Part shown: positions 2,796 through 54,591 of the stretch, in pieces
Position numbering within the stretch: position 1 is the first letter of the stretch
Layout: the number at the start of each line of letters is the position of its first letter
DNA from: a virus
Lineage: Duplodnaviria; Caudoviricetes
DNA: 64,000 nt
Strand: one strand, 5' to 3'
IMG/VR virus record: IMGVR_UViG_3300036802_000003
Coordinates: 1 to 64,000 of that record
The notes under the pieces: generated by a model
What the model saw: only the letters and a program-made list of their open reading frames with translations
Databases searched by the model: none
What the model was told of the DNA's origin: nothing
Made by a program: the position numbers and the translations under genes

Positions 2796-3419
2796 ATGTA
2801 CGCAACTCCATCAGAAGACTATATCTCTGCTAATCTGAACTCTAAGGCTCTTAATTACCTACTTGACACTATGTGTAACATTAGTTCTGTATTGGGAGAT
2901 ACGGATGGTAGGGTGACAATAACAACTGCTACAGAGCTTACTAAGTCTCTAGATATATCTGCTAATGGGCTTGTCCTGTCTAACAGTGAGGTTATACAGG
3001 ACGCTCCTTCTTCCTACCTAATTGAAGAATATTATGCTCCAGAAGTAGCTTATGACTCCTACCTAACATACTTGTATATGAGGTCAGGTGACCCAAACTA
3101 TGTACTTAGCATAACAGACAGTAGGGAGATAACAAGTCCTCTGTTGAGGCTCACTAGAGAACAACATGCTCCAGCATACCTTACTATCAGAAGCCTTTAC
3201 TTGGAGTCCTTCAGCATATATAAAGGTGCTGTAGAATTAAAGACTGTAGACTTATCCCAAGCAGATAAAGTTATAACAAATTGTAAAGTGCTTGCTTCCT
3301 ACTTGGCTAATAAAGACAAAGTGAACTATGACTTATTGGAGGTACTGAAGACACTGAAACTGTCCCTAATGTTCCTTAAACACTATGCTCACTTGCTACC
3401 TGAACAGGAGGGATACTAA
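2796..3419 (+). CDS. Hypothetical virion protein
   Basis: 207-aa ORF translationally coupled within the baseplate operon. Confidence 0.6.
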   Translation: MYATPSEDYISANLNSKALNYLLDTMCNISSVLGDTDGRVTITTATELTKSLDISANGLVLSNSEVIQDAPSSYLIEEYYAPEVAYDSYLTYLYMRSGDPNYVLSITDSREITSPLLRLTREQHAPAYLTIRSLYLESFSIYKGAVELKTVDLSQADKVITNCKVLASYLANKDKVNYDLLEVLKTLKLSLMFLKHYAHLLPEQEGY

Positions 3420-9395: not shown

Positions 9396-12300
9396 TATGA
9401 AGGTCAGATTAGGTGGTAAGTGGGTTACTGTAGCAGGTGGCGGAGTATCTCAAGAAGACCTGCAACAAGTGGTAAATGAAGCCAATGATTATGCTAACCG
9501 ATTAAAGGAACAAATAGATGACGACATCAAGGCTATGGAGGACAGCATCACAGGTCTAGAAAATAATATTGAGGGTGCATTCTCTGATGGTATTATTACT
9601 AAGACTGAAGCTAGACGTATTCAATCTTATATTAATACTTTAGATACAAACAAAGCACGCTTTGACAAAGAGTATACTAGTCTTATCAACAACCCATTCA
9701 TGAACGAAAACGATAAGCAAGGTTTAATCTCTGCTAAGGCTAGCCATGACGAGAAATTCACTTTACTTATCAAGGCTATCACTGACGCTATTGCGGATGG
9801 TAAAGCCACTGTGGAAGAAGCTAATCATGTTAATAGTAGTTTTGCTGACTACAATAATGCAGCTGCTGTGCTTACTTCTGCTATCTATGAAGCGATTGAT
9901 GATATTGCAACTAATAAAACAGGGGTAGCCCTAGAAGATGCTAAGTCATTTGCTAGCCAAGCAGCAGAGGGAGTTAAGACTATCCTAACTGCTGAAGTAC
10001 AAGGTGTTCAGAAGTCTGTAACTGACCTAGATACAGAAATCAAGGGTGCATTCCGTGATGGCATCATACAAGAGAATGAACTATCTTCTATTAAGGCTTA
10101 TTTAAATACTCTTGATACTTCTAAGCAAGGCTTAGATAAGAGATATGAGTCCACGTACAACAATGTTGACTTACCTGCACAGAACAAGACTAATCTTAAT
10201 ACCGTTAAGATTGATTATGACCGTTCTTATACTGCATTAATCAACACTATCAATGATGCTATTGTTGACCAGTTAGGTACTCCAGAAGAGCAGACTCTTA
10301 TCAATACAAAGTTTAAGGACTACAACCAAAAACTTGCGCTATTAACAACTCAATTGGAACTTGCAATTGAAGCAATTTCTAAGACTAAATCTACTAGAGC
10401 AGAAACGAATGCAAAAACATATTCTGACCAAATCAAAGGTGAGATGGCAGATGAGATTAAAGGGGTAGAAGATGCTACTACTGCATTGAAGAAGGAAATC
10501 AATACTACCTTTAAAGATGGAATCATAGATGCAAGTGAGGCACAGAAGATTAAGTCTTATATAAACTTATTGGATAACAATAAGAAAGCTTTACTAGAAA
10601 GATATACTGAGCTATACAACAACGGATTCATTTCTGCTATAGCTAAGACAACTTTAACTAGCAAGAAGACATTGTTTGACGCTAAATACAATCTTCTTAT
10701 TAGTGAGATTACTAATGCAATTGCTGATGGTAAAACTACTATGGGTGAGTCTCAAGCTGTAGACTCTGCATTCACTGTGTATAATGATGCGGTTAAAGAG
10801 TTTACAAATGCTATGGAAAAAGCAGCAGATAGCATAGCACAAGGTAAAGCAAATGCAGCAGAGTTTAACGCTGGAGAGTATGCAGATGAGGCTAGTAACC
10901 GCCTAGATGTAATTAAAGTACGATACATCAAAAATACTCTTTCGGGTAGTTCGGTTAATGCTTACAAACACTGGACTGAAATCAAAGCTATTAGTAAAGG
11001 TGTAAACGTTGCTCTATCTGGCACTGTTACTGGTAGTCCTGGTATTACAAACCTTGGCGTGGTTAATAACGACAAAGTAGATGACCAGTTTGCAGAAGAC
11101 CGTACAACAGGTGATTCATTCGTACAGATTGACTTAGGTACAATCAAGGATGATATCGACTACATTCAATTATGGCACTATTACCAAGATGCAAGACAGT
11201 ATAACGGTAACAAACTAGAGGTATCGGCTGATGGACAGAAATGGTACACTATGTTCAATAGTACTAAATCTGGTACGTACAAAGAGTCTGCTGATGGTTT
11301 CATTGTACCAATCAATGCTGGGCGTATCTATAATCACACTATGCAACGTATCACTAGTACCGAGACTCAGATAACTAATATTAATGGTGAATTACAGTCT
11401 AGAGTAAAGACTACAGTATTTGACCAAGGTATCAAGGACTCTAAGGAACATGCAGATGCAGTAGCACAGGCTATACGTAATGAGCTATCTAACTTCTCTA
11501 ACCTTATCACTACTCGCATTGATGGTATTGAAGACCAAGTGGATGGTAATATCACCACCTGGTTCTTATCTGGAGCGCCTACACTAACTAACAAACCAGC
11601 AGTAGACTGGAATACAGATGTGTTAAAGGATACTCACTTAGGTGACCTTTACTACGATTCTGCTACAGGATACTGTTACCGATTCTTGAAGACAGGTATT
11701 ATCTATGCATGGGCTAAGATAACTGACTCTGACGTTACTGAAGCCATCCAAAAAGCAGCTAAGGCACAAGATACAGCAGATGGTAAGAGACGAGTATTCG
11801 TTGTTCAACCTATTCCTCCATATGATGTAGGTGATTTATGGGCACAGGGTTCTGCTGGAGATTTAATGCGTTGTAACGTTGCTAAGGCACAAGGTGCATT
11901 GTATAATGCAGGAGACTGGAGTAAAGCTTCTAAATATGTTGACCAAAAGGCAGTAAATGATACCCTAAATCCATTCGTAACTAGATTAGAGACTGCTGAG
12001 TCATCTGTTACACAGAATGCTAGGGAAATCTCTGAACGTGTTAAGATTGATACGTATAACCAAGAGATTATTAACATCAATACTAATGTGGGTAACATCG
12101 ATACTGCACAAAAAGGCACTGCCGATAAATTAAACAAGTTGTCTATTGGTGGTCGTAACTTACTGAAGAACAGTGGTAACTTTGTTACTATTGAGAACTG
12201 GACGTCTTCTGACACTGCTACTGCTACAGTAATGCTAGATAAAGATGACCTTAAAATCAGTAAAGTGGGATTAGCTACAGCAGTTCACATTATCAACCCT

Positions 12301-41680: not shown

Positions 41681-41710
41681 AAAAAGGTAGCCCATTACAG
41701 GCTACCTTTT
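41681..41710. terminator. Bidirectional terminator between convergent genes
   Basis: AAAAAGGTAGCC/GGCTACCTTTT. Confidence 0.8.
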
Positions 41711-42546
41711 AATATTGAATTTATTATGCTTGTGAAGTCCTCATGTGTACCGCTCAAGAATCTAACCATCGAGCCATGTGTATAGTGCCTCATCTCATTT
41801 ACCCTTTTGGTAAATCCATTCTTAGTTAACAGTAGAACACGTGGAAACGTAGGATTCTTGAACACCCTTGCCCATTCCTTTTTAGCCCACTGTTTGGACA
41901 CATAGTAATCTTTGTAATTGTCAATCTTGTTCTTGATAACTGGTAACCTCTCCGTACCCATGTCGACCTCAATGCAGAATCCATATCCTTTACCCTTACA
42001 CTTAAATATGCAAACAATGTCGGGCTTAATGTAACTGTCATTAAAGTGGCACTTCTCTTCCGTCTCATAATATATCATCTCTCCCCCTAGTTCTCTAAGA
42101 ACTTCCTGTATCAAGCATTCACACTCATTAATGGCAACTCTGTGGTGAAACCCATCTACTAGTGTTCGCTGACCAGAAGAGTCATACTTGATTGGCTTGC
42201 TATATCGTTCTATATCCAGCAAGATTATTCCTGCCCTATCAATACATATGTGCTGTTGAGCACTTCCCTGCCCTAAAGGTACAGGAGGAACTATTCTATC
42301 TATCACATGCTTGTTGAACAGTATCTTCAACCTATTGTTAAGCCTTTCGGTGCTAGCAAATTCTGGGTAAAGGCGTTGTATCTGGTTTCTCTTTAGCACC
42401 CTCTTATCAGCCAGTAATCTTAACAACCCCATATCCCTCTCTGTAATGTTGTTGCAGTTATTGTAAACCCACTCTTTGGTAATCTGCTTTACCTCTGGAC
42501 GCTTATAAATACCTTTCATATCAGCCTTCCTCCAGTCCATCATCAT
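41695..42546 (-). CDS. Replication-relaxation (Replic_Relax) family protein
   Basis: wHTH-like ITERD..LL..L...RL..L; H.VAINE; IKPD; IEVDMGTE....K...Y..Y; FPRVL. Confidence 0.85.
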   Translation of the reverse strand: MMMDWRKADMKGIYKRPEVKQITKEWVYNNCNNITERDMGLLRLLADKRVLKRNQIQRLYPEFASTERLNNRLKILFNKHVIDRIVPPVPLGQGSAQQHICIDRAGIILLDIERYSKPIKYDSSGQRTLVDGFHHRVAINECECLIQEVLRELGGEMIYYETEEKCHFNDSYIKPDIVCIFKCKGKGYGFCIEVDMGTERLPVIKNKIDNYKDYYVSKQWAKKEWARVFKNPTFPRVLLLTKNGFTKRVNEMRHYTHGSMVRFLSGTHEDFTSIINSILKGSL

Positions 42547-45256
42547 TTAATACTTCCTCTAGTAATTCCATTATTTCCTCTGCACCTTCTTCATCACCAT
42601 CCTCTAGTAGCTTAGTTACTAGTGCACCAGCATCCTTTTCTAGTGTACGCAATTCCTCTTCATGTTGTTCTCTACGCTCATCTTCATCAATCTCAATAGG
42701 GGTGTTTTTTGGTGGGGTTTTGCCCTTCTTGATGTCTTCCTCTACTAACTCGACACTGAACTCCGCATTGTTCTTGTATCGGAACAACTCATTCAGCACT
42801 TCCTGTTTCGGTCTTCCCATAAGCTTTGCATTCTCATCGTATAAGTCATTATTGTTATACTTCTTGTATCTCTTTTCAGGCTCATTAATAGCCTTAACCA
42901 TAAATGGAGGAGTAGCTTCACCCTTCTTATTGTACATCTTTAGCTTGACGATTGCATGATGCTTAGGCATACCCTTTGCTATTTGGTCTGCACTAAACTC
43001 TGGTTGAATAACAGACTCCAGTTCTTTCAAGTTATCTCTATCTGTTTGGAATACTACATAGTGTGGACCAGCCTTACGTATCATCTTAGGCAAGGACTTA
43101 TCCATAGCCTTTAACTGCTCCCACCCATGGAACATAAATGTTAGACCACAACGGTACTTTCTATAACGAGTTAACATATTTCTCCAACGCTCACTACCTT
43201 TGATATAATGGTCTGGCTCATCTAGTATAATGAAGCATGGCTTACGGTCATCCTCTTCCTCGATATCCTCCCTGCTAATGATGGCAAGGTTGAATTTAGA
43301 TATTAAGAAGGATACCAATGCAGTCTGGTTCTCTTCTCCTAATGTCTCATTAGCCTTGACTAATACTAGGCAACCCTCATCCATCCACTTTCTGAAGTCT
43401 ACTATATATTCACCATTCTCATCCTTTTTAGGCTTCTGAAGTATGAAACTCTTTAGAGCCTTCTTACGCATTACAACCGCTAAACGTCTGAATGCTTGTT
43501 CATATATAGCTTTTCTGTCCTCTTTAGACATCTTCTCATGGAAGTACTCCCAATCACTACGCAACTCTGGGTCATCAATATGAGGAATAATGCTGGCACG
43601 GTACTCCGCATTACTCAGCATATTCTCTATATCCTGCAACGTTGCATCTGGAGTAGTGTATACTGCACGTACAGCATTCTCAACCCAGATTCTAGATGTC
43701 ATGCTTAACTCCGTACCTGCAACTAACTCAACGTATGACAGAATCTCTTCAGTAATTAAATCCTCAATAACATCAGCATTTCTACCTCTAAATATCTCAT
43801 TCCATCCTAACCCTACTGGGTTCTCTGAATTTAAGAAATCTATTATCTTTACCTTATGTCTCTTCTCTGGTGGAACTAGATTCAGTATCCTCTGTGCTAA
43901 CTTACCATCTGCCGCATCTACTACCATAGACCCATAACCTTTCTCCAGTGCATCTAGTGCAAAGCTAGCTGCAAAGGTAGACTTACCGCTACCTGGCTCT
44001 CCTATGACCACACGTGACATACACAGTAGGTTAGGGTTATCTCCTGCGAAGTATACTGTCTTAGTTTCACCATCTGTGTCCTCATATGTCGCAAACGGTA
44101 TACCCTTACCATCATCCTCAAATATTTCCTTAGGAATATCTGCTGAACTTCTATGCTGAACAGTATCTAGCTCATTTTGGTGCTCCATTTGTAGTACTTG
44201 GTCTGGTACCTGTATAATCTTAGCTAACTCTAGGGAGCATAGCTCATCTCCATTCATCTTAACAACCATCTTACGGTCTCTAATATTCTTGAGGGCTTTA
44301 ATTTTGTCTCTACCCTCTACTTCTTTCGCCACTAGTTTGTTATCCCCTTCTAAAGGGTGGAAACCTGCTGTAAGGCTTCTCGTGATAGCTCTACGTCTAT
44401 CTTCATCATCAGATATAGCTATTGCATTAAAGTTAATCTTGAACCCCTCACTATACTTCTTACGTAGTGAGGATTTAGAACGTCCCTCATGTGCCTTTCG
44501 CTTTAGCGACTCTCTAAATTCAGTATTCATCTCCCATCCAGGTATGAGGAAATCTCCTACTATGTTCATAAGTTCTTCAAGAACAAGACCCATGACGTTA
44601 GCCAAGCCCACCAAGACGTTTTTTGATGTAAACATCGTACCTTTTTTCTTAGGGATGACGTTCTTCTCCTTGATATTTTCACCAATCCCAACCATAGTCT
44701 CATTCCAAGACTCACCAAGCGGTCTCATCCCTAGTTGTAGTATCGCATAATCCTCATCCTTGAGATAGTTTGTAGTCGTCAGGATAGAGTCAAGTGGGGT
44801 ATACTTAGGGTTCTCCATGTCCAAGGCTAGTGCTGGGTGATTCTGCAAGGACATTTTGGTAACACTAGTATTGTCCATGTGAAGGTTAGGCAGAGGGTCT
44901 TTCACCTCCCTCACCGTAGAACGTTTCCAGCATCTTCTTATCTGCCTAGTAAGTGCATCCTTTAAATGGTCTTTATCAGGTATAACCAAATAGAACTTTA
45001 CCTGACCTTTGTGTATGACCACTTCCCACCATATATTCATCTCTGGAGTGTATATAAGTCTACCACCTCCAAAGTTTATACGCTTGTTTAGTGGAGTAAA
45101 CAATGTTGCAAACTCTGTTATAAGCCATCTAACCCCTGCATTGGACGTCATCTTACTAGGAATAACCTCCAGTGTCACATACTGTATTTCCTCTTTCTCT
45201 ACTAAACGTATCTTCTCCTTAGTAGTTGGATTAACAATATTAACCTCTGGTTGCAT
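42521..45256 (-). CDS. VirD4/VirB4/HerA-like DNA-translocating ATPase (911 aa)
   Basis: Walker A VIGEPGSGKST, VVDAADG, Walker B FIILDEPD, RKYR.GL...H; large N-terminal domain with a hydrophobic segment. Confidence 0.82.
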   Translation of the reverse strand: MQPEVNIVNPTTKEKIRLVEKEEIQYVTLEVIPSKMTSNAGVRWLITEFATLFTPLNKRINFGGGRLIYTPEMNIWWEVVIHKGQVKFYLVIPDKDHLKDALTRQIRRCWKRSTVREVKDPLPNLHMDNTSVTKMSLQNHPALALDMENPKYTPLDSILTTTNYLKDEDYAILQLGMRPLGESWNETMVGIGENIKEKNVIPKKKGTMFTSKNVLVGLANVMGLVLEELMNIVGDFLIPGWEMNTEFRESLKRKAHEGRSKSSLRKKYSEGFKINFNAIAISDDEDRRRAITRSLTAGFHPLEGDNKLVAKEVEGRDKIKALKNIRDRKMVVKMNGDELCSLELAKIIQVPDQVLQMEHQNELDTVQHRSSADIPKEIFEDDGKGIPFATYEDTDGETKTVYFAGDNPNLLCMSRVVIGEPGSGKSTFAASFALDALEKGYGSMVVDAADGKLAQRILNLVPPEKRHKVKIIDFLNSENPVGLGWNEIFRGRNADVIEDLITEEILSYVELVAGTELSMTSRIWVENAVRAVYTTPDATLQDIENMLSNAEYRASIIPHIDDPELRSDWEYFHEKMSKEDRKAIYEQAFRRLAVVMRKKALKSFILQKPKKDENGEYIVDFRKWMDEGCLVLVKANETLGEENQTALVSFLISKFNLAIISREDIEEEDDRKPCFIILDEPDHYIKGSERWRNMLTRYRKYRCGLTFMFHGWEQLKAMDKSLPKMIRKAGPHYVVFQTDRDNLKELESVIQPEFSADQIAKGMPKHHAIVKLKMYNKKGEATPPFMVKAINEPEKRYKKYNNNDLYDENAKLMGRPKQEVLNELFRYKNNAEFSVELVEEDIKKGKTPPKNTPIEIDEDERREQHEEELRTLEKDAGALVTKLLEDGDEEGAEEIMELLEEVLNDDGLEEG

Positions 45257-45267
45257 CTTAATCCCTC

Positions 45268-45468
45268 CTATTTAAACCATCCTTGCATAAATTCTGGTAA
45301 CACGTACATCATCTCTTCCCTAGCCTTCTCACCTATAGACTCAAACGTTGCATCAAAGATACCACCCATTATACCACCAATGAACTTTAGACCATTCCCA
45401 GATAGCTCTGGTACTGCTAGAGACACCACCACATATATACAAGAGTATGCTAACTTCCTTATCTCCAT
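45268..45468 (-). CDS. Small membrane protein (66 aa)
   Basis: Hydrophobic/GxxxG segments; RBS GGAGG. Confidence 0.65.
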   Translation of the reverse strand: MEIRKLAYSCIYVVVSLAVPELSGNGLKFIGGIMGGIFDATFESIGEKAREEMMYVLPEFMQGWFK

Positions 45469-45469
45469 A

Positions 45470-45613
45470 TTAGTGACCTCCCATCCACATACCCATCAGC
45501 ACTTTGACAGTCTTATATGCCACTTGATATGAGAATCCAGGAGCTATATACTCGATGGCTCCCATTATCAAGAGCGTCTTAGCTATACTTCCAACCAGCT
45601 TAACCCAGAACAT
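45470..45613 (-). CDS. Small membrane protein, 47 aa (MFWVKLVGSIAKTLLIMGAIEYIAPGFSYQVAYKTVKVLMGMWMGGH); not in the ORF track
   Basis: Translated by hand; RBS GGAGGT; 1-nt gaps to both neighbours. Confidence 0.7.
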   Translation of the reverse strand: MFWVKLVGSIAKTLLIMGAIEYIAPGFSYQVAYKTVKVLMGMWMGGH

Positions 45614-45614
45614 A

Positions 45615-45749
45615 TTATTGTACCTCCAAGAGTACTTCTACTGCCTTATTAACTGACCATGTTAACACCTTGATAGTCACCATACCTGCTGTAACCAACC
45701 CTGCACCAACAACATACAACACTTTATTGCTTACTGGTTTCTTTTCCAT
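45615..45749 (-). CDS. Small membrane protein, 44 aa (MEKKPVSNKVLYVVGAGLVTAGMVTIKVLTWSVNKAVEVLLEVQ); not in the ORF track
   Basis: Translated by hand; RBS AGGAGGGG; single TM segment. Confidence 0.7.
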   Translation of the reverse strand: MEKKPVSNKVLYVVGAGLVTAGMVTIKVLTWSVNKAVEVLLEVQ

Positions 45750-45760
45750 CTGAACCCCTC

Positions 45761-46141
45761 CTATTGAAATTGTTTAGTATTCATGCTTAAAGCTTTGTCT
45801 AGGTCTATCTCCTTGTCTTGCTGTACAAGTATCTTTGGCTTGGATTCTTTTATCTGAGGTGCAGGCTTCTTATCTGACACTGGGAGATGAGGTTTCTGAT
45901 GTGATACTTTTTTCTTAGTTTTACTAGGGTTCTCTGGTCTCTGATGTGATTTGATAGGAGTCTGTGACATTATCTCTGATGTGATGTTATCATATAACCT
46001 CTGTGACAGCTTTGGGTCATGCTCTACTGCAAATAGTACACACTCTCTGATAAATCTACTTCTATCCCTCATATCATCCAAGTGTGCTTCCAGCCATTCT
46101 GTAGACTTAGTTGTTCTGAATGTATACTGTTTATCAGCCAT
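45761..46141 (-). CDS. ParR-like ribbon-helix-helix adaptor
   Basis: QYTFRT strand + WLEAHLD...DRSRFIRECV helices, disordered tail; directly downstream of the actin-like ATPase. Confidence 0.7.
   Translation of the reverse strand: MADKQYTFRTTKSTEWLEAHLDDMRDRSRFIRECVLFAVEHDPKLSQRLYDNITSEIMSQTPIKSHQRPENPSKTKKKVSHQKPHLPVSDKKPAPQIKESKPKILVQQDKEIDLDKALSMNTKQFQ
45895..46008. repeat. Iteron-like repeats (TCTGATGTGAT x3, TCTGTGACA x2) inside the parR-like gene
   Basis: TCTGATGTGAT at 45895, 45940, 45975; TCTGTGACA at 45961, 46000. Confidence 0.7.
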
Positions 46142-46142
46142 A

Positions 46143-47180
46143 TCACACACCCCTAATCAGATTTCTAATACCCCATTTGTGATACCCCTTAGCTACTGCA
46201 AACTGACCATTCTGTGATAGTTCTGTGTTCGGAAAGTGGTCTTTCATATGAGGATATAGTGAAGCTCCTCCCCCACCAGCAAATATTATTTTATCTAGGA
46301 AGTTAATCTCATCCTTCCAGAAGTTATGCAGTCTGTTAGTGATGTCGTAGGCTACATTCTCGTAAGCCCAGTCTATTGTTGGAGCCATGTCATACACCTT
46401 AGTTCCAGACTTCAATACTCTGCTCTGTACTACATGCTCTGCTTTGTACAGTGGGAAGTTTACTCCTGTGTGGTCTAATATATTATCTGAGACAACTTGG
46501 TTTACCGAATTCATAGCAACGCTGAAGCTAGTAGTCAGATGCTCAATGTTATTGAAGACCTCACACACATAGATGTCTGTAGTTCCAAACCCTATATCAA
46601 CTACTGCTACCCTTGACTTAGCTAAGTTTGTATCTGCTATCTCACCTTTATCATCCAATATTCTGTCCATTAATGCTCCAAATGGTTGTGGTACGAATAG
46701 ACCTTTCCTACCCTTAACTGATCCATTTACTCTTATACCAGAGGACTCTATATTGTACTCATGCTTATTGTCCATAAACAGGCTCCTAATAGCTTCCTTG
46801 TATTCATCAAAGTGGCTAACTGGTAGACCTGATACAAAGTTAGTTTCCTTTGCTCCACCATTCATCCCTAGACCGAGGATAGTCCCTAATAATATCTTTG
46901 TAACCTCACTATCAAAGCGGTCACTCGTCAGAGAGTGTTTAACGATTCTAGATTGAGTTATTGCTAAGTCCGATACAAAGTGTACACCTTGTGAATCTCT
47001 GTATTCTATGTCGTCATGCTTTTTGTCTACCGCAAACGAGTCTGTTACACTCCTGTTGAAATCCTTTAGCTTTCTATCTTTCCCTACACCTACAACCGAC
47101 TTGATTATGATTGGCTTACCATTGATAATCCCTTTTGTATACATAAACCCTAAGTCAGCCACCGTAACTGCTTTACTCAT
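46143..47180 (-). CDS. parM: ParM/StbA-family actin-like segregation ATPase
   Basis: Phosphate-1 ADLGFMYTK, SGLPV, VPQPFGA, phosphate-2 VVDIGFGTTD, adenosine FAGGGG, AKGY; start at 47180 after AAGGGGG. Confidence 0.9.
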   Translation of the reverse strand: MSKAVTVADLGFMYTKGIINGKPIIIKSVVGVGKDRKLKDFNRSVTDSFAVDKKHDDIEYRDSQGVHFVSDLAITQSRIVKHSLTSDRFDSEVTKILLGTILGLGMNGGAKETNFVSGLPVSHFDEYKEAIRSLFMDNKHEYNIESSGIRVNGSVKGRKGLFVPQPFGALMDRILDDKGEIADTNLAKSRVAVVDIGFGTTDIYVCEVFNNIEHLTTSFSVAMNSVNQVVSDNILDHTGVNFPLYKAEHVVQSRVLKSGTKVYDMAPTIDWAYENVAYDITNRLHNFWKDEINFLDKIIFAGGGGASLYPHMKDHFPNTELSQNGQFAVAKGYHKWGIRNLIRGV

Positions 47181-47193
47181 ATCTGATTCCCCC

Positions 47194-47673
47194 TTAGAAA
47201 GATATAGATGAACGGATGATATTCGAAATCCAGCGTAGCATTTGGAACATAGTAGGTAACATTGAGATTCCAATATAAGCGTACCCTACGTTCTTAATTC
47301 TGTTCCATCCAGCATCCTTACTCTTACCTGTTGCCATCATGATAAACCCTATCAGAGCGTAGAACCAAAGTATTGGCTCTGCTATTGCAGTGAATATATC
47401 AACTATATCCATGAACCCTCTGCGTAGGTCGTTGGCATTTTGAGTAGCTGCAAATGCATGTGTAGCTCTCATCCCTAGTCTAGTAACGATTGCTGTAGGT
47501 AGAATCATCTCTCCGAACCATCTAACCAAGGACTTTCTACCCTGCTCTAGTTCTCCAGCATGTCGTGATTTATTTTCGTATTGAGGTTCTATGAAATCCC
47601 ACTTAATTACTTCTGGCTTCTTAACGTTGCTCACTTGAATGCCTTTACCCGTAGTTACCAATTGCGTCATCAT
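47194..47673 (-). CDS. VirB2/TrbC pilin-like membrane protein
   Basis: AHAFA-like cleavage site (THAFA|ATQ) then two TM helices with a GKSK.GW.RIK..G.Y loop; start at 47673 after GGAGGAG. Confidence 0.6.
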   Translation of the reverse strand: MMTQLVTTGKGIQVSNVKKPEVIKWDFIEPQYENKSRHAGELEQGRKSLVRWFGEMILPTAIVTRLGMRATHAFAATQNANDLRRGFMDIVDIFTAIAEPILWFYALIGFIMMATGKSKDAGWNRIKNVGYAYIGISMLPTMFQMLRWISNIIRSSISF

Positions 47674-47820
47674 AATCTCCTCCATACTCATTGATTTCCG
47701 CAACCCAGAGCGGAGACACCCCAAAGTAAGAAAAAATGTTTCGGTTTTGCTGGAGAGTGGGACACCTAGAGAATCAAAGGGTGTACTAGCATTGCCCCCT
47801 CATTACCAAAAAGTGACGGT

Positions 47821-47846
47821 GGGTCGTTTCGGGGGGTCGTTTCGGG
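47821..47846. repeat. Perfect 13-bp tandem repeat GGGTCGTTTCGGG x2
   Basis: 47821-47833 and 47834-47846; partial GTTTCGG at 47738. Confidence 0.8.
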
Positions 47847-48665: not shown

Positions 48666-48772
48666 GTCTTTTTTATTAAAAGGAGTATTTAAAAATTTTC
48701 TTTAAATTTTTAAGAATTTTAAGTATACTTTTAAAATTTTTAGTAAGTAAGGGACTAGGTTAGCCATACGGA

Positions 48773-51813: not shown

Positions 51814-54591
51814 ATGAAGTGTACTGCATGTAGGCTTTCTGAGACCTGTCCAAAGGTGCTACAAATGGGACATGGCAAGAAAAAAGCTAGGGTCATGGTT
51901 ATACAGGAGAACCCTTACGAGCATGAGAATAAGAAGGGTAAATACTTTAGTGGTAAAGCTGGTAAACTACTCCAATCAGCCTTTGAAGAGGTGGGTATAG
52001 ATGCTGATGATGTCTATTATACTGCGGTAGTTAAGTGCTCAACACCAGAGGATAGACTACCCCTAAAGGACGAGGTTAAGGCATGTGAAGACTATCTATG
52101 GGCAGAGATTGATGCAGTAGAACCAGAGATTATTATACCGACAGGTAACATGTCTCTATGGGCTTTAACAGGTCGTACTGCAATAACTAAGCAACGTGGG
52201 AGACTTATTGAGAAGGATGGTTACAAGTTCTTCCCTATGATACACCCTAATATGGTTCTAAAGCAACCAAAGTATATGGAGTTCTTTTCTAAGGACATCA
52301 TTAATTTACACTCAATACTAGAAGGTGTGCTCCCTGCTGACATATTAGCGTATGAACAGGAGAGACTGTACTGTGAGGACTATGACACTGCTATCAACGA
52401 ATTGAAGAGACTAATGGCTCTACCAGATGGTCATTTGGTAACAGTCGATTTAGAGACCGTTAAGTCCAATCCCTACTTGGACAAGACGGTTATGTCAAAG
52501 ACTAAGAGAGCTATGTTCCCTGAGAGTGAGATAGTTAAGATATCTGCAATAGGATTCTCTGATAGAGCTGGGTATGGTAATGCCATTCCATTATACCATA
52601 GAGAAACCCCTTTTACAGGTAATCAGATTGGAACAATAGTGAAGTTCATACGTTTCCTAATTGAGGACTCTAAGCTGGAGTTTGTGGCACACAATAGTAA
52701 GTTCGAGATGAAGTGGCTACTACAACAGCTAGATATATACCTAGCCGACCTCAAGTGGGACACTATGTTAATGCACTATCTTGCAGTTACAGAGGAAAAG
52801 GGTACACATGACTTGAAGCAGTTGGCATGGTTAGAGACTGATATGGGCGGATATGATGATGAGTTAGACCCATACCTACCTAAGGGTGATGATGAAGGTA
52901 ACTATGACATGATACCTTGGGATACACTCAAAGTCTACCTAGCAGCCGATGTTGATGTAACATACCGATTACTAGACAAATATAAACCTCTTATTGAAGA
53001 GGATAAAGAGAAGAAATGGCTATGGGATAACCTCATGGTACCTGGTCTGTATGCATTGATGGACATTGAACACACTGGTGCTAAGGTAGATGGAGACTTG
53101 CTTGGAATCTATAGAGGTCGTTATGAGGAAGAGATTGACCGTATAGAAGCCAAGCTAAGGGAATATCCAGAGATTGTTAGCCTAGAGCGTGAAAGACATG
53201 AACTTTGGTTAGAGCGTGTTGCGATAGGCGGAATTAAGAAGGCTAACCGTACTGAGGAACAACAGACTAAGTTTGAGAAGAATAAGAAGTATGACCCTAA
53301 GAAGGGTGGAGATAAGCTAAACTTTGGTTCATCTACCCAACTACAGGTACTCTTCTTTGAGATAATGGGCTTAGAAACGGTTGTCCTTACTGATAAAGGT
53401 CATCCAAGTACTAATGATGACTCATTGAAATATATGAGAAATCAGCATCCTATGATTGCTCTATTAATGGAGTACCGCAAGGTTGCCCATTTATATAGTA
53501 ACTTCATTGATAAGATGTCAATGCACGTAGATGCAAGAGGTCTTATACATGGTAACTACAATCTGCATGGAACAGTTACAGGGCGTTTAAGTAGTAATGA
53601 ACCGAATATGCAACAGTTACCTCGTAAGGTGAATGACCCCTTCCTATTCCAGTACTGGAATGAGATTAAAGCACTGTTTGTATCTAGGTTTGGGGACGAT
53701 GGCGTTATTATCCAGTTTGACTATTCTCAGTTAGAGTTACGTATCCTAGCTGTTATGACTGGTGACCCAGAGCTTATCCGACTGTATCGTTCAGGAGCTG
53801 ACTTACATAAAGAGGTAGCATCTGGTGCATTCGGAGTACCTGTGTCTGAAGTTACTAAAGACCAACGTACTGCATCTAAGAAGATTCAGTTCGGTATCGT
53901 ATACCAAGAGTCTGCTAAAGGTCTGTCAGAAGACTTACGTGCAGAGGGTATTAATATGTCTGTAGAAGAGTGTCAAAGCTTCATTGATAGCTACTTCAAG
54001 CGATTCCCAGTAGTAGAACGCTGGATTAAGCGCATTAAGAAGTTTGCTAAAAAGAATAAGCATGTTAGAACAATGACTAACCGTATCCGTCACCTAGATG
54101 CTATTGATTCTACTGACCGTTCAGTAGCAAACGAGGCAGAGCGTCAGGCAGTAAACGCACCTATTCAGTCTACAGGTTCAGACTGTACATTAATGGCACT
54201 TATCATTATTAATGACTGGTTACAAAACTCTGACCTGAAGAGTAGAATAGTAATCACTGTACATGATAGTATCGTGTTTGACTGTCCTAAGGATGAGGTA
54301 GTGGAAGTGTCTGAGAAAGTTAAGCATGTTATGGAGAACTTAGCAGAGTACAACGAGTTCTATAAGTTCTTAGGTGATGTACCAATTCTGTCTGAGATGG
54401 AGATTGGATACAACTATGGTCACTCATTCGAGTGCAGTATTGAGGACATAAAGGAGCAGGGTGTAGATGGGTTCCTACAGAAAGAGTTGGCAGATAAACA
54501 TACTAAAGAGCAAGAAAAGTACGCTAAAGCAGAAAAAGAAGGTACTCCTATACCGAAGCATGTTACAGGTTATTGGGAGAATATAGCATAG
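51814..54591 (+). CDS. polA: Family A DNA polymerase with N-terminal uracil-DNA-glycosylase-like domain and 3'-5' exonuclease
   Basis: CTACRL...ENP...VKC...HP (UDG family 4-like); DLET, HNSKFE, YLAAD; TVTGRLSS, DYSQLELR, K..FGIVY, NAPIQS, VHDS. Confidence 0.95.
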   Translation: MKCTACRLSETCPKVLQMGHGKKKARVMVIQENPYEHENKKGKYFSGKAGKLLQSAFEEVGIDADDVYYTAVVKCSTPEDRLPLKDEVKACEDYLWAEIDAVEPEIIIPTGNMSLWALTGRTAITKQRGRLIEKDGYKFFPMIHPNMVLKQPKYMEFFSKDIINLHSILEGVLPADILAYEQERLYCEDYDTAINELKRLMALPDGHLVTVDLETVKSNPYLDKTVMSKTKRAMFPESEIVKISAIGFSDRAGYGNAIPLYHRETPFTGNQIGTIVKFIRFLIEDSKLEFVAHNSKFEMKWLLQQLDIYLADLKWDTMLMHYLAVTEEKGTHDLKQLAWLETDMGGYDDELDPYLPKGDDEGNYDMIPWDTLKVYLAADVDVTYRLLDKYKPLIEEDKEKKWLWDNLMVPGLYALMDIEHTGAKVDGDLLGIYRGRYEEEIDRIEAKLREYPEIVSLERERHELWLERVAIGGIKKANRTEEQQTKFEKNKKYDPKKGGDKLNFGSSTQLQVLFFEIMGLETVVLTDKGHPSTNDDSLKYMRNQHPMIALLMEYRKVAHLYSNFIDKMSMHVDARGLIHGNYNLHGTVTGRLSSNEPNMQQLPRKVNDPFLFQYWNEIKALFVSRFGDDGVIIQFDYSQLELRILAVMTGDPELIRLYRSGADLHKEVASGAFGVPVSEVTKDQRTASKKIQFGIVYQESAKGLSEDLRAEGINMSVEECQSFIDSYFKRFPVVERWIKRIKKFAKKNKHVRTMTNRIRHLDAIDSTDRSVANEAERQAVNAPIQSTGSDCTLMALIIINDWLQNSDLKSRIVITVHDSIVFDCPKDEVVEVSEKVKHVMENLAEYNEFYKFLGDVPILSEMEIGYNYGHSFECSIEDIKEQGVDGFLQKELADKHTKEQEKYAKAEKEGTPIPKHVTGYWENIA

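Follow-up and report, generated by a model that had tools for sequence, protein, structure and literature searches.

A candidate centromere-like repeat array within the gene of a putative ParR-type adaptor in a CP-51/SPO1-type Bacillus phage

As textbooks have it, a type II partition system is built of three parts, with the centromere upstream of the operon, where it also serves as the operator. In the phage genome IMGVR_UViG_3300036802_000003 (Caudoviricetes), of which the first 64 kb are from here on called the window, a gene for a ParM-like actin-family ATPase is followed by a gene for a protein of 126 amino acids, here called the adaptor (45761..46141, minus strand, with the ATG at 46141; gp95 in phage CP-51, homologous to gp27.8 of SPO1), and within this second gene lie short DNA repeats. 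Could the centromere be embedded in the gene of the protein that would bind it? Our answer is tentative. We favor the reading that the repeats are a centromere-like docking array of the adaptor, and give it slightly less than an even chance.

The 11-mer TCTGATGTGAT occurs exactly three times, at 45895, 45940 and 45975, and nowhere else in the 139-kb genome; the 9-mer TCTGTGACA occurs twice, at 45961 and 46000. On the coding (minus) strand they are ATCACATCAGA and TGTCACAGA, respectively. The first 11-mer copy (45895..45905) is read V-S-H-Q-K-P, the second (45940..45950) K-S-H-Q-R-P and the third (45975..45985), in another frame than the other two, N-I-T-S-E-I; the 9-mer copies are read M-S-Q-T (45961..45969) and L-S-Q-R (46000..46008). 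A degenerate copy, TGTCAGATAA on the coding strand, is found at 45870..45879 (read V-S-D-K). TGTGAY cores stand at 45900, 45945, 45963, 45980, 46002, 46178 and 46213, and the in-gene cluster spans adaptor codons 45-83. A preliminary description of this DNA had the repeat positions and the first five cores right. The two distal cores that it added, both TGTGAT, are present, but they belong to the ParM-like gene, at its 3′ end (46175..46220), and not to the adaptor gene; they are poorly conserved and lost in several close relatives. Its placement of the repeats in a low-complexity tail of the protein holds for the copies at 45940 and 45895, which fall within the disordered tail, but not for those at 46000, 45975 and 45961, which fall within a predicted third helix (residues 43-60).

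The least demanding explanation, chance clustering without meaning, can point to the four one-mismatch matches of the 11-mer in 64 kb, where 1.7 are expected. Against it stand the three exact copies within 91 bp, unique in 139 kb and the sole triple 9- to 11-mer of the window. TGTGAY occurs 22 times on the plus strand of the window, and seven of these lie between 45900 and 46213 (314 bp); in 300 simulations with a first-order Markov model, no stretch of 110 bp held more than three. A scan of the whole genome found one cluster only of at least four TGTGAY/RTCACA cores within 150 bp, in this locus. Together with the gene ranking and the pooled words given below, and with the recurrence of the feature across the family, these results refute chance, which we consider hardly credible.

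A second explanation is that the linker of the protein, a low-complexity region evolving by replication slippage, contains repeated short peptides (S/T-Q, V-T-Q/P, S-H-Q-K/R-P), and that the DNA repeats are what recent duplications left behind, without function in cis. Codon usage bears directly on it. When codons were resampled synonymously, with the amino-acid sequence kept fixed and local 8-mer repeats counted, the adaptor gene of the window exceeded the null in frame (p=0.002) and also out of frame (p=0.001), and it ranked first among 57 genes of the window, one other of which reached p<=0.01. By this measure the window repeats act at DNA level and are not merely a peptide repeat, as had been argued before from the different frames in which the 11-mer is read. 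The sole other window gene with local DNA repeats above the null is that of a 925-amino-acid protein at 51814-54588 (total p<=0.005).

Related loci, numbered with an L below, were gathered from viral, metagenomic and genomic collections and make up about 16 lineages. Many divergent homologues, from SPO1-like phages and metagenomes and with 25-60% identity, have DNA repeats in the linker-coding part of the gene. In L023, GTCACACAATT is repeated 2.6 times with 100% identity and a period of 11 that runs through three frames (read S-H-N-C-H-T-I-V-T-P), and L033 has 4.8 repeats, likewise of period 11 and in three frames. L018 contains a 12-bp unit 3.6 times and the palindrome TCTCACA-CAAAA-TGTGAGA; L031 contains TGTCAGACAAA twice, in differing frames, and an inverted TCTGACA. 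Palindromes of 7-nt arms with a CAAAA spacer are present in both L018 and L031. Units of the GTCACACAA type were found in L026 and L028, and GGTAACAC and GTTAC units in L030, SPO1 and CampHawk. The resampling test was positive in nine of 14 lineages (the window, L023, L028, L031, L033, L030, L018, L026 and CampHawk), the first five of these having out-of-frame copies above the null, and the densest 120-bp repeat window of the locus lay in the adaptor linker, or tied with it, in 8 of 14 loci.

Common to the lineages is a core, TGTCACACAA or GT(C/A)ACAC. When the words of 12 lineages were pooled, TGTCACA was observed 7 times (0.05 expected), CACACAA 9 times (0.10 expected) and TCACA 18 times (1.6 expected); the enriched words exceeded the synonymous null by a factor of 3-9 (P<0.0005), in all three frames. 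Threonine is coded by ACA in 64% of cases in the linkers vs 38% in the background, and serine by TCA in 46% vs 21%. The exact 10-mer TGTCACACAA is present in four copies in 4 lineages where about 0.17 would be expected, and three of the copies lie within adaptor linkers. The preliminary description had named homologues lacking the repeats as one outcome that would refute it. What was found is that close relatives keep most copies and that distant ones have their own, with a shared core. Because the repeats occur in distant relatives and in different frames, the adaptor probably has its docking sites within its own gene, and binding sites of the adaptor there would be the most economical reading of the family-wide repeats.

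The fourth copy of TGTCACACAA is found in L025, in non-coding DNA 62 bp upstream of parM, and L025 has no in-gene repeats. The Alicyclobacillus phage KKP_3916, in which the ParM-like/adaptor pair is unannotated, has an adaptor with a short linker and with neither in-gene repeats nor the peptide motif of the family (see below); it has 11.3 tandem 11-bp iterons (L008:3751-3894, consensus CATTTGGGATA) that overlap a promoter of perfect consensus, TTGACA-18-TATAAT, immediately before parM, which, judged by its position, is a textbook parC-like layout. Since these two relatives without in-gene repeats have canonical upstream sites, they were counted as support for in-gene sites in the others. A control family of distant ParM/ribbon-helix-helix (RHH) pairs (L047-L052) showed no in-gene excess, and in two of its members the repeats are densest immediately before parM.

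In our phage the contiguous parC upstream of the operon and overlapping its promoter, by which type II systems are recognized, is absent: Tandem Repeats Finder (TRF) detected no canonical upstream array near this operon. The sole upstream repeat is a GC-rich 13-bp tandem at 47817-47846 (CGGGGGGTCGTTT, 2.3 times), which is unrelated to the in-gene core and has its equivalent in SPO1 in AAACGACCC / TTTTGACCC (also L006 about 3265-3300).

Several findings weigh against an in-gene docking array, and some of them favor the peptide explanation. The linker has a conserved peptide motif, (K/E)-(V/I)-(T/S)-(Q/P), which aligns across the family, in nearly all members, and is confounded with the DNA motif. 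V-T-Q is coded by GTN ACN CAR, so that peptide selection accounts for part of the in-frame signal, and the motif might on its own account for the in-frame copies. The copies in SPO1 and CampHawk are mostly in frame and vary synonymously (GTT ACT vs GTA ACA). Five lineages (L022, L025, L027, L044 and L046) have no significant in-gene repeat excess, and L044 and L046 among them have the peptide motif. Within the CP-51 clade, of which eight distinct sequences were compared, the copies turn over. In several relatives synonymous changes (TCA -> TCT or TCC, ACA -> ACC) break cores: the first 11-mer copy carries one in L003 and L013, the third (ACA -> ACC) in JL, Shanette and L009. The second copy is degenerate in phage S4-1, and the TCTGTGACA copy at 46000 occurs in this phage alone, 7 of 7 relatives having TGGCACAGA (coding strand) at this site. 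The copy at 45961 is identical in 8 of 8 clade sequences and the degenerate one at 45870 in all clade members. Extra conservation of the motif was not found in the clade, 7/51 (13.7%) of its columns being variable vs 32/162 (19.8%) in the rest of the linker (p=0.41). Moreover, the spacing of the cores is irregular (45, 18, 17 and 22 bp) and the sites are not contiguous; in this they are unlike the known RHH centromeres, because the sites of R1, pCBH and omega (see below) are contiguous. The matches that support RHH/ParR membership of the adaptor are weak. Finally, SPO1-type phages are regarded as lytic, and relatives are described as virulent or pseudolysogenic, so that a role in partition is not obvious.

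Other findings do not agree with repeated peptides as the whole cause: the out-of-frame copies above the null in five lineages, the period of 11 bp, which is no multiple of three, and the use of the same codons across lineages whose synonymous sites should be saturated. L025 has the same 10-mer in non-coding DNA upstream of parM, and KKP_3916 has neither peptide motif nor in-gene repeats, yet it has an upstream array. We consider the peptide explanation rather unlikely, though well worth reckoning with. As to the docking array, the idea that a parC equivalent lies within the adaptor gene gains from the lack of an upstream array and from the in-gene repeats of the homologues, and it loses by the scattered sites and the unremarkable conservation in the clade.

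A docking array calls for a protein that can dock. The adaptor corresponds to phrog_24040, of unknown function in that database, and a Pfam scan of the window protein gave no match. Its relatives at E<=0.001 number 12 in a full HMMER scan of 1.84 billion representatives, one of them (P0004) aligning to the low-complexity tail alone. By tblastn the family is present in SPO1-like phages and in KKP_3916; blastn of the locus and tblastn of the family member P0013 against the PLSDB plasmids were both without a match, and in the PLSDB/tblastn searches made the family looks phage-only.

In the alignment of the family an N-terminal strand with two helices is followed by a linker that varies and by a C-terminal motif that is conserved. 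The strand K-Q-Y-T-F-K-T-T-K is almost invariant (KQYTFRTTK in the window protein) and forms with the two helices a putative RHH DNA-binding domain (codons 1-41; 46019..46141, minus strand); Q5, F8, T10, T11, T14, W16 and R32 are invariant. The conserved C-terminal helix (codons 114-125; 45767..45802, minus strand) has a DLDKAL..F-type motif, for which the consensus D-L-D-x-A-L-D-x-L..F holds family-wide with L118 invariant or nearly so; it is presumed to contact the ParM-like motor. The AlphaFold model, built with a 21-sequence alignment, has an extended strand followed by helices at residues 12-21 and 27-41 (with a predicted local distance difference test, pLDDT, of 83-89), further helices at 43-60 and 114-125 and disorder from 61 to 113; the single-sequence fold was poor. 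Pfam PF10784 (Plasmid_stab_B), which we take to be the StbB/ParR family, was sub-threshold in 8 of 21 family members, with 13-20 bits vs a cut-off of 25 and in one register. Weak structural matches (VIA) were obtained to Reg576 (Z 4.0), pSK41 ParR (2q2k, Z 2.6) and omega (1irq, Z 2.6); Foldseek against the PDB gave no match for the adaptor, and a PDB profile search gave NikR alone (E=1). As aligned and modeled, the adaptor has the architecture and the gene position of a ParR, which does not prove ParR membership. The near-invariance of the putative DNA-reading strand fits one core across the family; when residues of this strand were compared by eye with the motif variants in about 14 lineages, no clear pattern of covariation emerged.

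Less doubt attaches to the motor. The ParM-like protein (46143..47183, minus strand; 346 amino acids) corresponds to gp96 of CP-51 and gp27.9 of SPO1, matches ALP_N (1.5e-18) and MreB-like_C (8.2e-19) in Pfam, is a clear relative of pCBH ParM (6ixw, E=1.6e-27) and belongs to phrog_691, partition protein. An actin-fold ATPase of the ParM family, as type II systems have it, is therefore encoded here. The adaptor gene lies immediately downstream of parM, with an overlap of a few bases between the two, and this order is kept in CP-51, SPO1, KKP_3916 and metagenomic loci.

Two loci deviate. In L005 (phage C30-1, PQ069202) the ParM-like gene is present and the downstream sequence is different; tblastn of the record found no adaptor, which may be an assembly artefact because the record is an UNVERIFIED partial genome. 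In the metagenomic L023:2373-3002 the ParM-like ORF (open reading frame) has just 209 amino acids and is possibly truncated or frameshifted, with the adaptor and the perfect 11-bp repeats intact. In the window the final codons of the ParM-like gene include a 14-bp tandem (ATTTCTAATACCCC / ATTTGTGATACCCC, 46161-46188), which codes for the conserved tail G-Y-x-K-W-G-I-R and is probably peptide-driven.

How does the locus compare with known systems? With the ParMRC systems of R1/NR1, pSK41 and pCBH it shares an actin-like motor gene followed by that of a small, putatively RHH-type adaptor whose C-terminal part is disordered, short direct repeats as candidate docking sites and, in the relatives, the 11-bp period of R1 parC. 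The R1 centromere consists of two sets of five iterons (PMC2241845), and pCBH parC is located at 9901-10030, directly before parM (PMC6599009). In the plasmids the parC repeats form one contiguous block, which lies upstream of parM and overlaps the promoter, whereas here the candidate sites are few, non-contiguous and in-gene, and the pair is part of an 8-gene operon of a large SPO1-type phage with modified DNA. KKP_3916, with its homologous ParM-like/adaptor pair, differs from our phage in that its array stands upstream, in the canonical layout.

The omega protein of pSM19035 is an RHH protein that binds the 7-bp WATCACW in direct or inverted orientation and requires at least four contiguous heptads (PMC9499535). 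The 11-mer of the window contains AATCACA/TATCACA, which matches this heptad and, with the weak fold match to 1irq, makes for a likeness that may be coincidence. Sequence homology between omega and the adaptor was not detected. The partner of omega is a ParA-type (Walker) ATPase, here it is an actin-like motor, and parS heptads are contiguous at promoters, whereas the window cores are 17-45 bp apart.

For the location of the sites there is a parallel in a type I system. In 1998 Lin and Grossman reportedly found that parS of Bacillus subtilis lies in spo0J (parB), a centromere site within the gene of its binding protein. The ParABS system differs in having an HTH (helix-turn-helix) ParB, a single 16-bp palindrome and spreading, where we find a putative RHH adaptor and an actin-like motor.

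ParR-type proteins are also repressors (R1, pSK41), which raises the question whether the in-gene sites only control the operon, either through autoregulation or by limiting how far transcription reads through into the genes for membrane peptides, ATPase and Replic_Relax protein, and constitute no centromere. A core copy is indeed found in or beside a conserved promoter-like element upstream of parM in SPO1 (where TCTGTGAT is a parM-proximal candidate site), CampHawk, L044, L028 and L046, and the arrays are short and non-contiguous. The exact 10-mer upstream in L044 was not counted as independent support, because it overlaps a GTGT/ACAC hairpin and T-run inside the promoter-like element. Repression from within a gene is inefficient, however. 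The conservation of the C-terminal helix and the ParM-like gene next to that of the adaptor suggest a complex coupled to the motor, and the genome holds no other centromere candidate. An operator without a centromere seems to us improbable. The transcription roadblock considered in the preliminary description is speculation.

The spacer between the pilin-like gene and parM contains in some loci an element composed of CTTTGACAACTGAATA, an AGAGAA-like hexamer, about 17 nt and a T-run (TTTNTTT), which we take to resemble a middle-class (gp28) promoter of SPO1. It was found at L006:3883-3982, L007:3884-3982, L018:1878-1994, L028:1827-1928, L044:2380-2482 and L027:1878-1964; the CP-51 clade is without it, and there, as in this phage, the gap between the two genes is about 10 bp.

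The repeats might also serve another nucleic-acid role, as an mRNA element, as an antisense promoter or as the target of some other protein of the module, for instance as a relaxase nick region. Hairpins of 7 bp with a CAAAA loop are possible in L018 and L031, a Replic_Relax gene is part of the module, and GTGACA-18-TATCAT is matched on the plus strand at 45964-45993. The RNA fold of the window repeat region is no better than that of shuffles (z=0.31), by which RNA structure was rejected. Promoter-like matches in the region equal chance, and the antisense sigma-A-like promoter at 45964-45993, which has an upstream TG and is built from cores, was rejected as a general explanation, being absent in 13 of 13 other lineages. 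A link to the relaxase is unlikely because L033 has in-gene repeats without ATPase and Replic_Relax genes, and KKP_3916 and L025, with their sites upstream, are also without both. We give these roles together a very small share of the probability.

If the docking array is what it appears to be, the 126-amino-acid protein would be a ParR-type adaptor, whose N-terminal RHH domain is followed by a disordered linker and by a C-terminal helix gripping the ParM-like filament protein. Its docking sites would be the RTCACA-type cores, three in ATCACATCAGA, two in TGTCACAGA and further ones in degenerate copies, with two weak copies at the end of the parM-like gene. Adaptor dimers on the cores would anchor phage DNA on actin-like filaments as these grow, and this tethering could position or segregate the DNA during infection or in a carrier state; the bound adaptor might also tune expression of the operon. 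We infer the binding of the adaptor to the cores, its engagement of the motor and the benefit to the phage. That, across the family, linker codons of SPO1-type adaptors double as a binding array, and that the motor positions hydroxymethyluracil-containing DNA and possibly feeds the adjacent pilin/ATPase/relaxase-like module, is a wider proposal that we put forward as doubtful.

The source genome is a single contig of 139,244 bp. Its window region is 88-91% identical to the Bacillus phages CP-51, JL, Shanette and S4-1 (Herelleviridae, Siminovitchvirus), and the phage is of the CP-51/SPO1 type. The adaptor gene is surrounded by a module of eight genes (41695..47724, minus strand), which encode a pilin-like protein (47194-47724, minus strand; weak match to PF18895), the ParM-like protein, the adaptor, three tiny membrane peptides of 44-66 amino acids each, a P-loop ATPase of 911 amino acids and a Replic_Relax protein. 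The module is also present in SPO1, as gp29.1, 27.9, 27.8, 27.7-27.5, 27.4 and 27.3, and in CampHawk.

Outside the module, in the region upstream of the operon, AT-rich arrays on the palindrome AAAGTACTTT were found at 48688-48746 of the window and at L006:2341-2397, L018:430-492 and L027:95-177. They are the strongest repeat cluster in several loci; the window and SPO1 both have them between the gene for head decoration and a dUMP-hydroxymethylase-like gene.

On the function of ParM in SPO1/CP-51, on that of the module and on an in-gene parC, literature searches found nothing relevant, and the in-gene placement would give type II (ParMRC-like) systems a layout that is new. Should binding fail, the locus would still be a clean case of a coding linker with DNA repeats out of frame, for which another explanation is needed. 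If the reading is true, a centromere can be uncoupled from the promoter, and protein and DNA constraints are overlaid on one disordered linker. The specificity determinant and its site would then travel as one unit, and adaptor and site could be inherited as a single cassette. For the biology of these supposedly lytic phages, the repeats would offer a testable handle on an 8-gene module that is conserved from CP-51 to SPO1 (gp29.1 to gp27.3).

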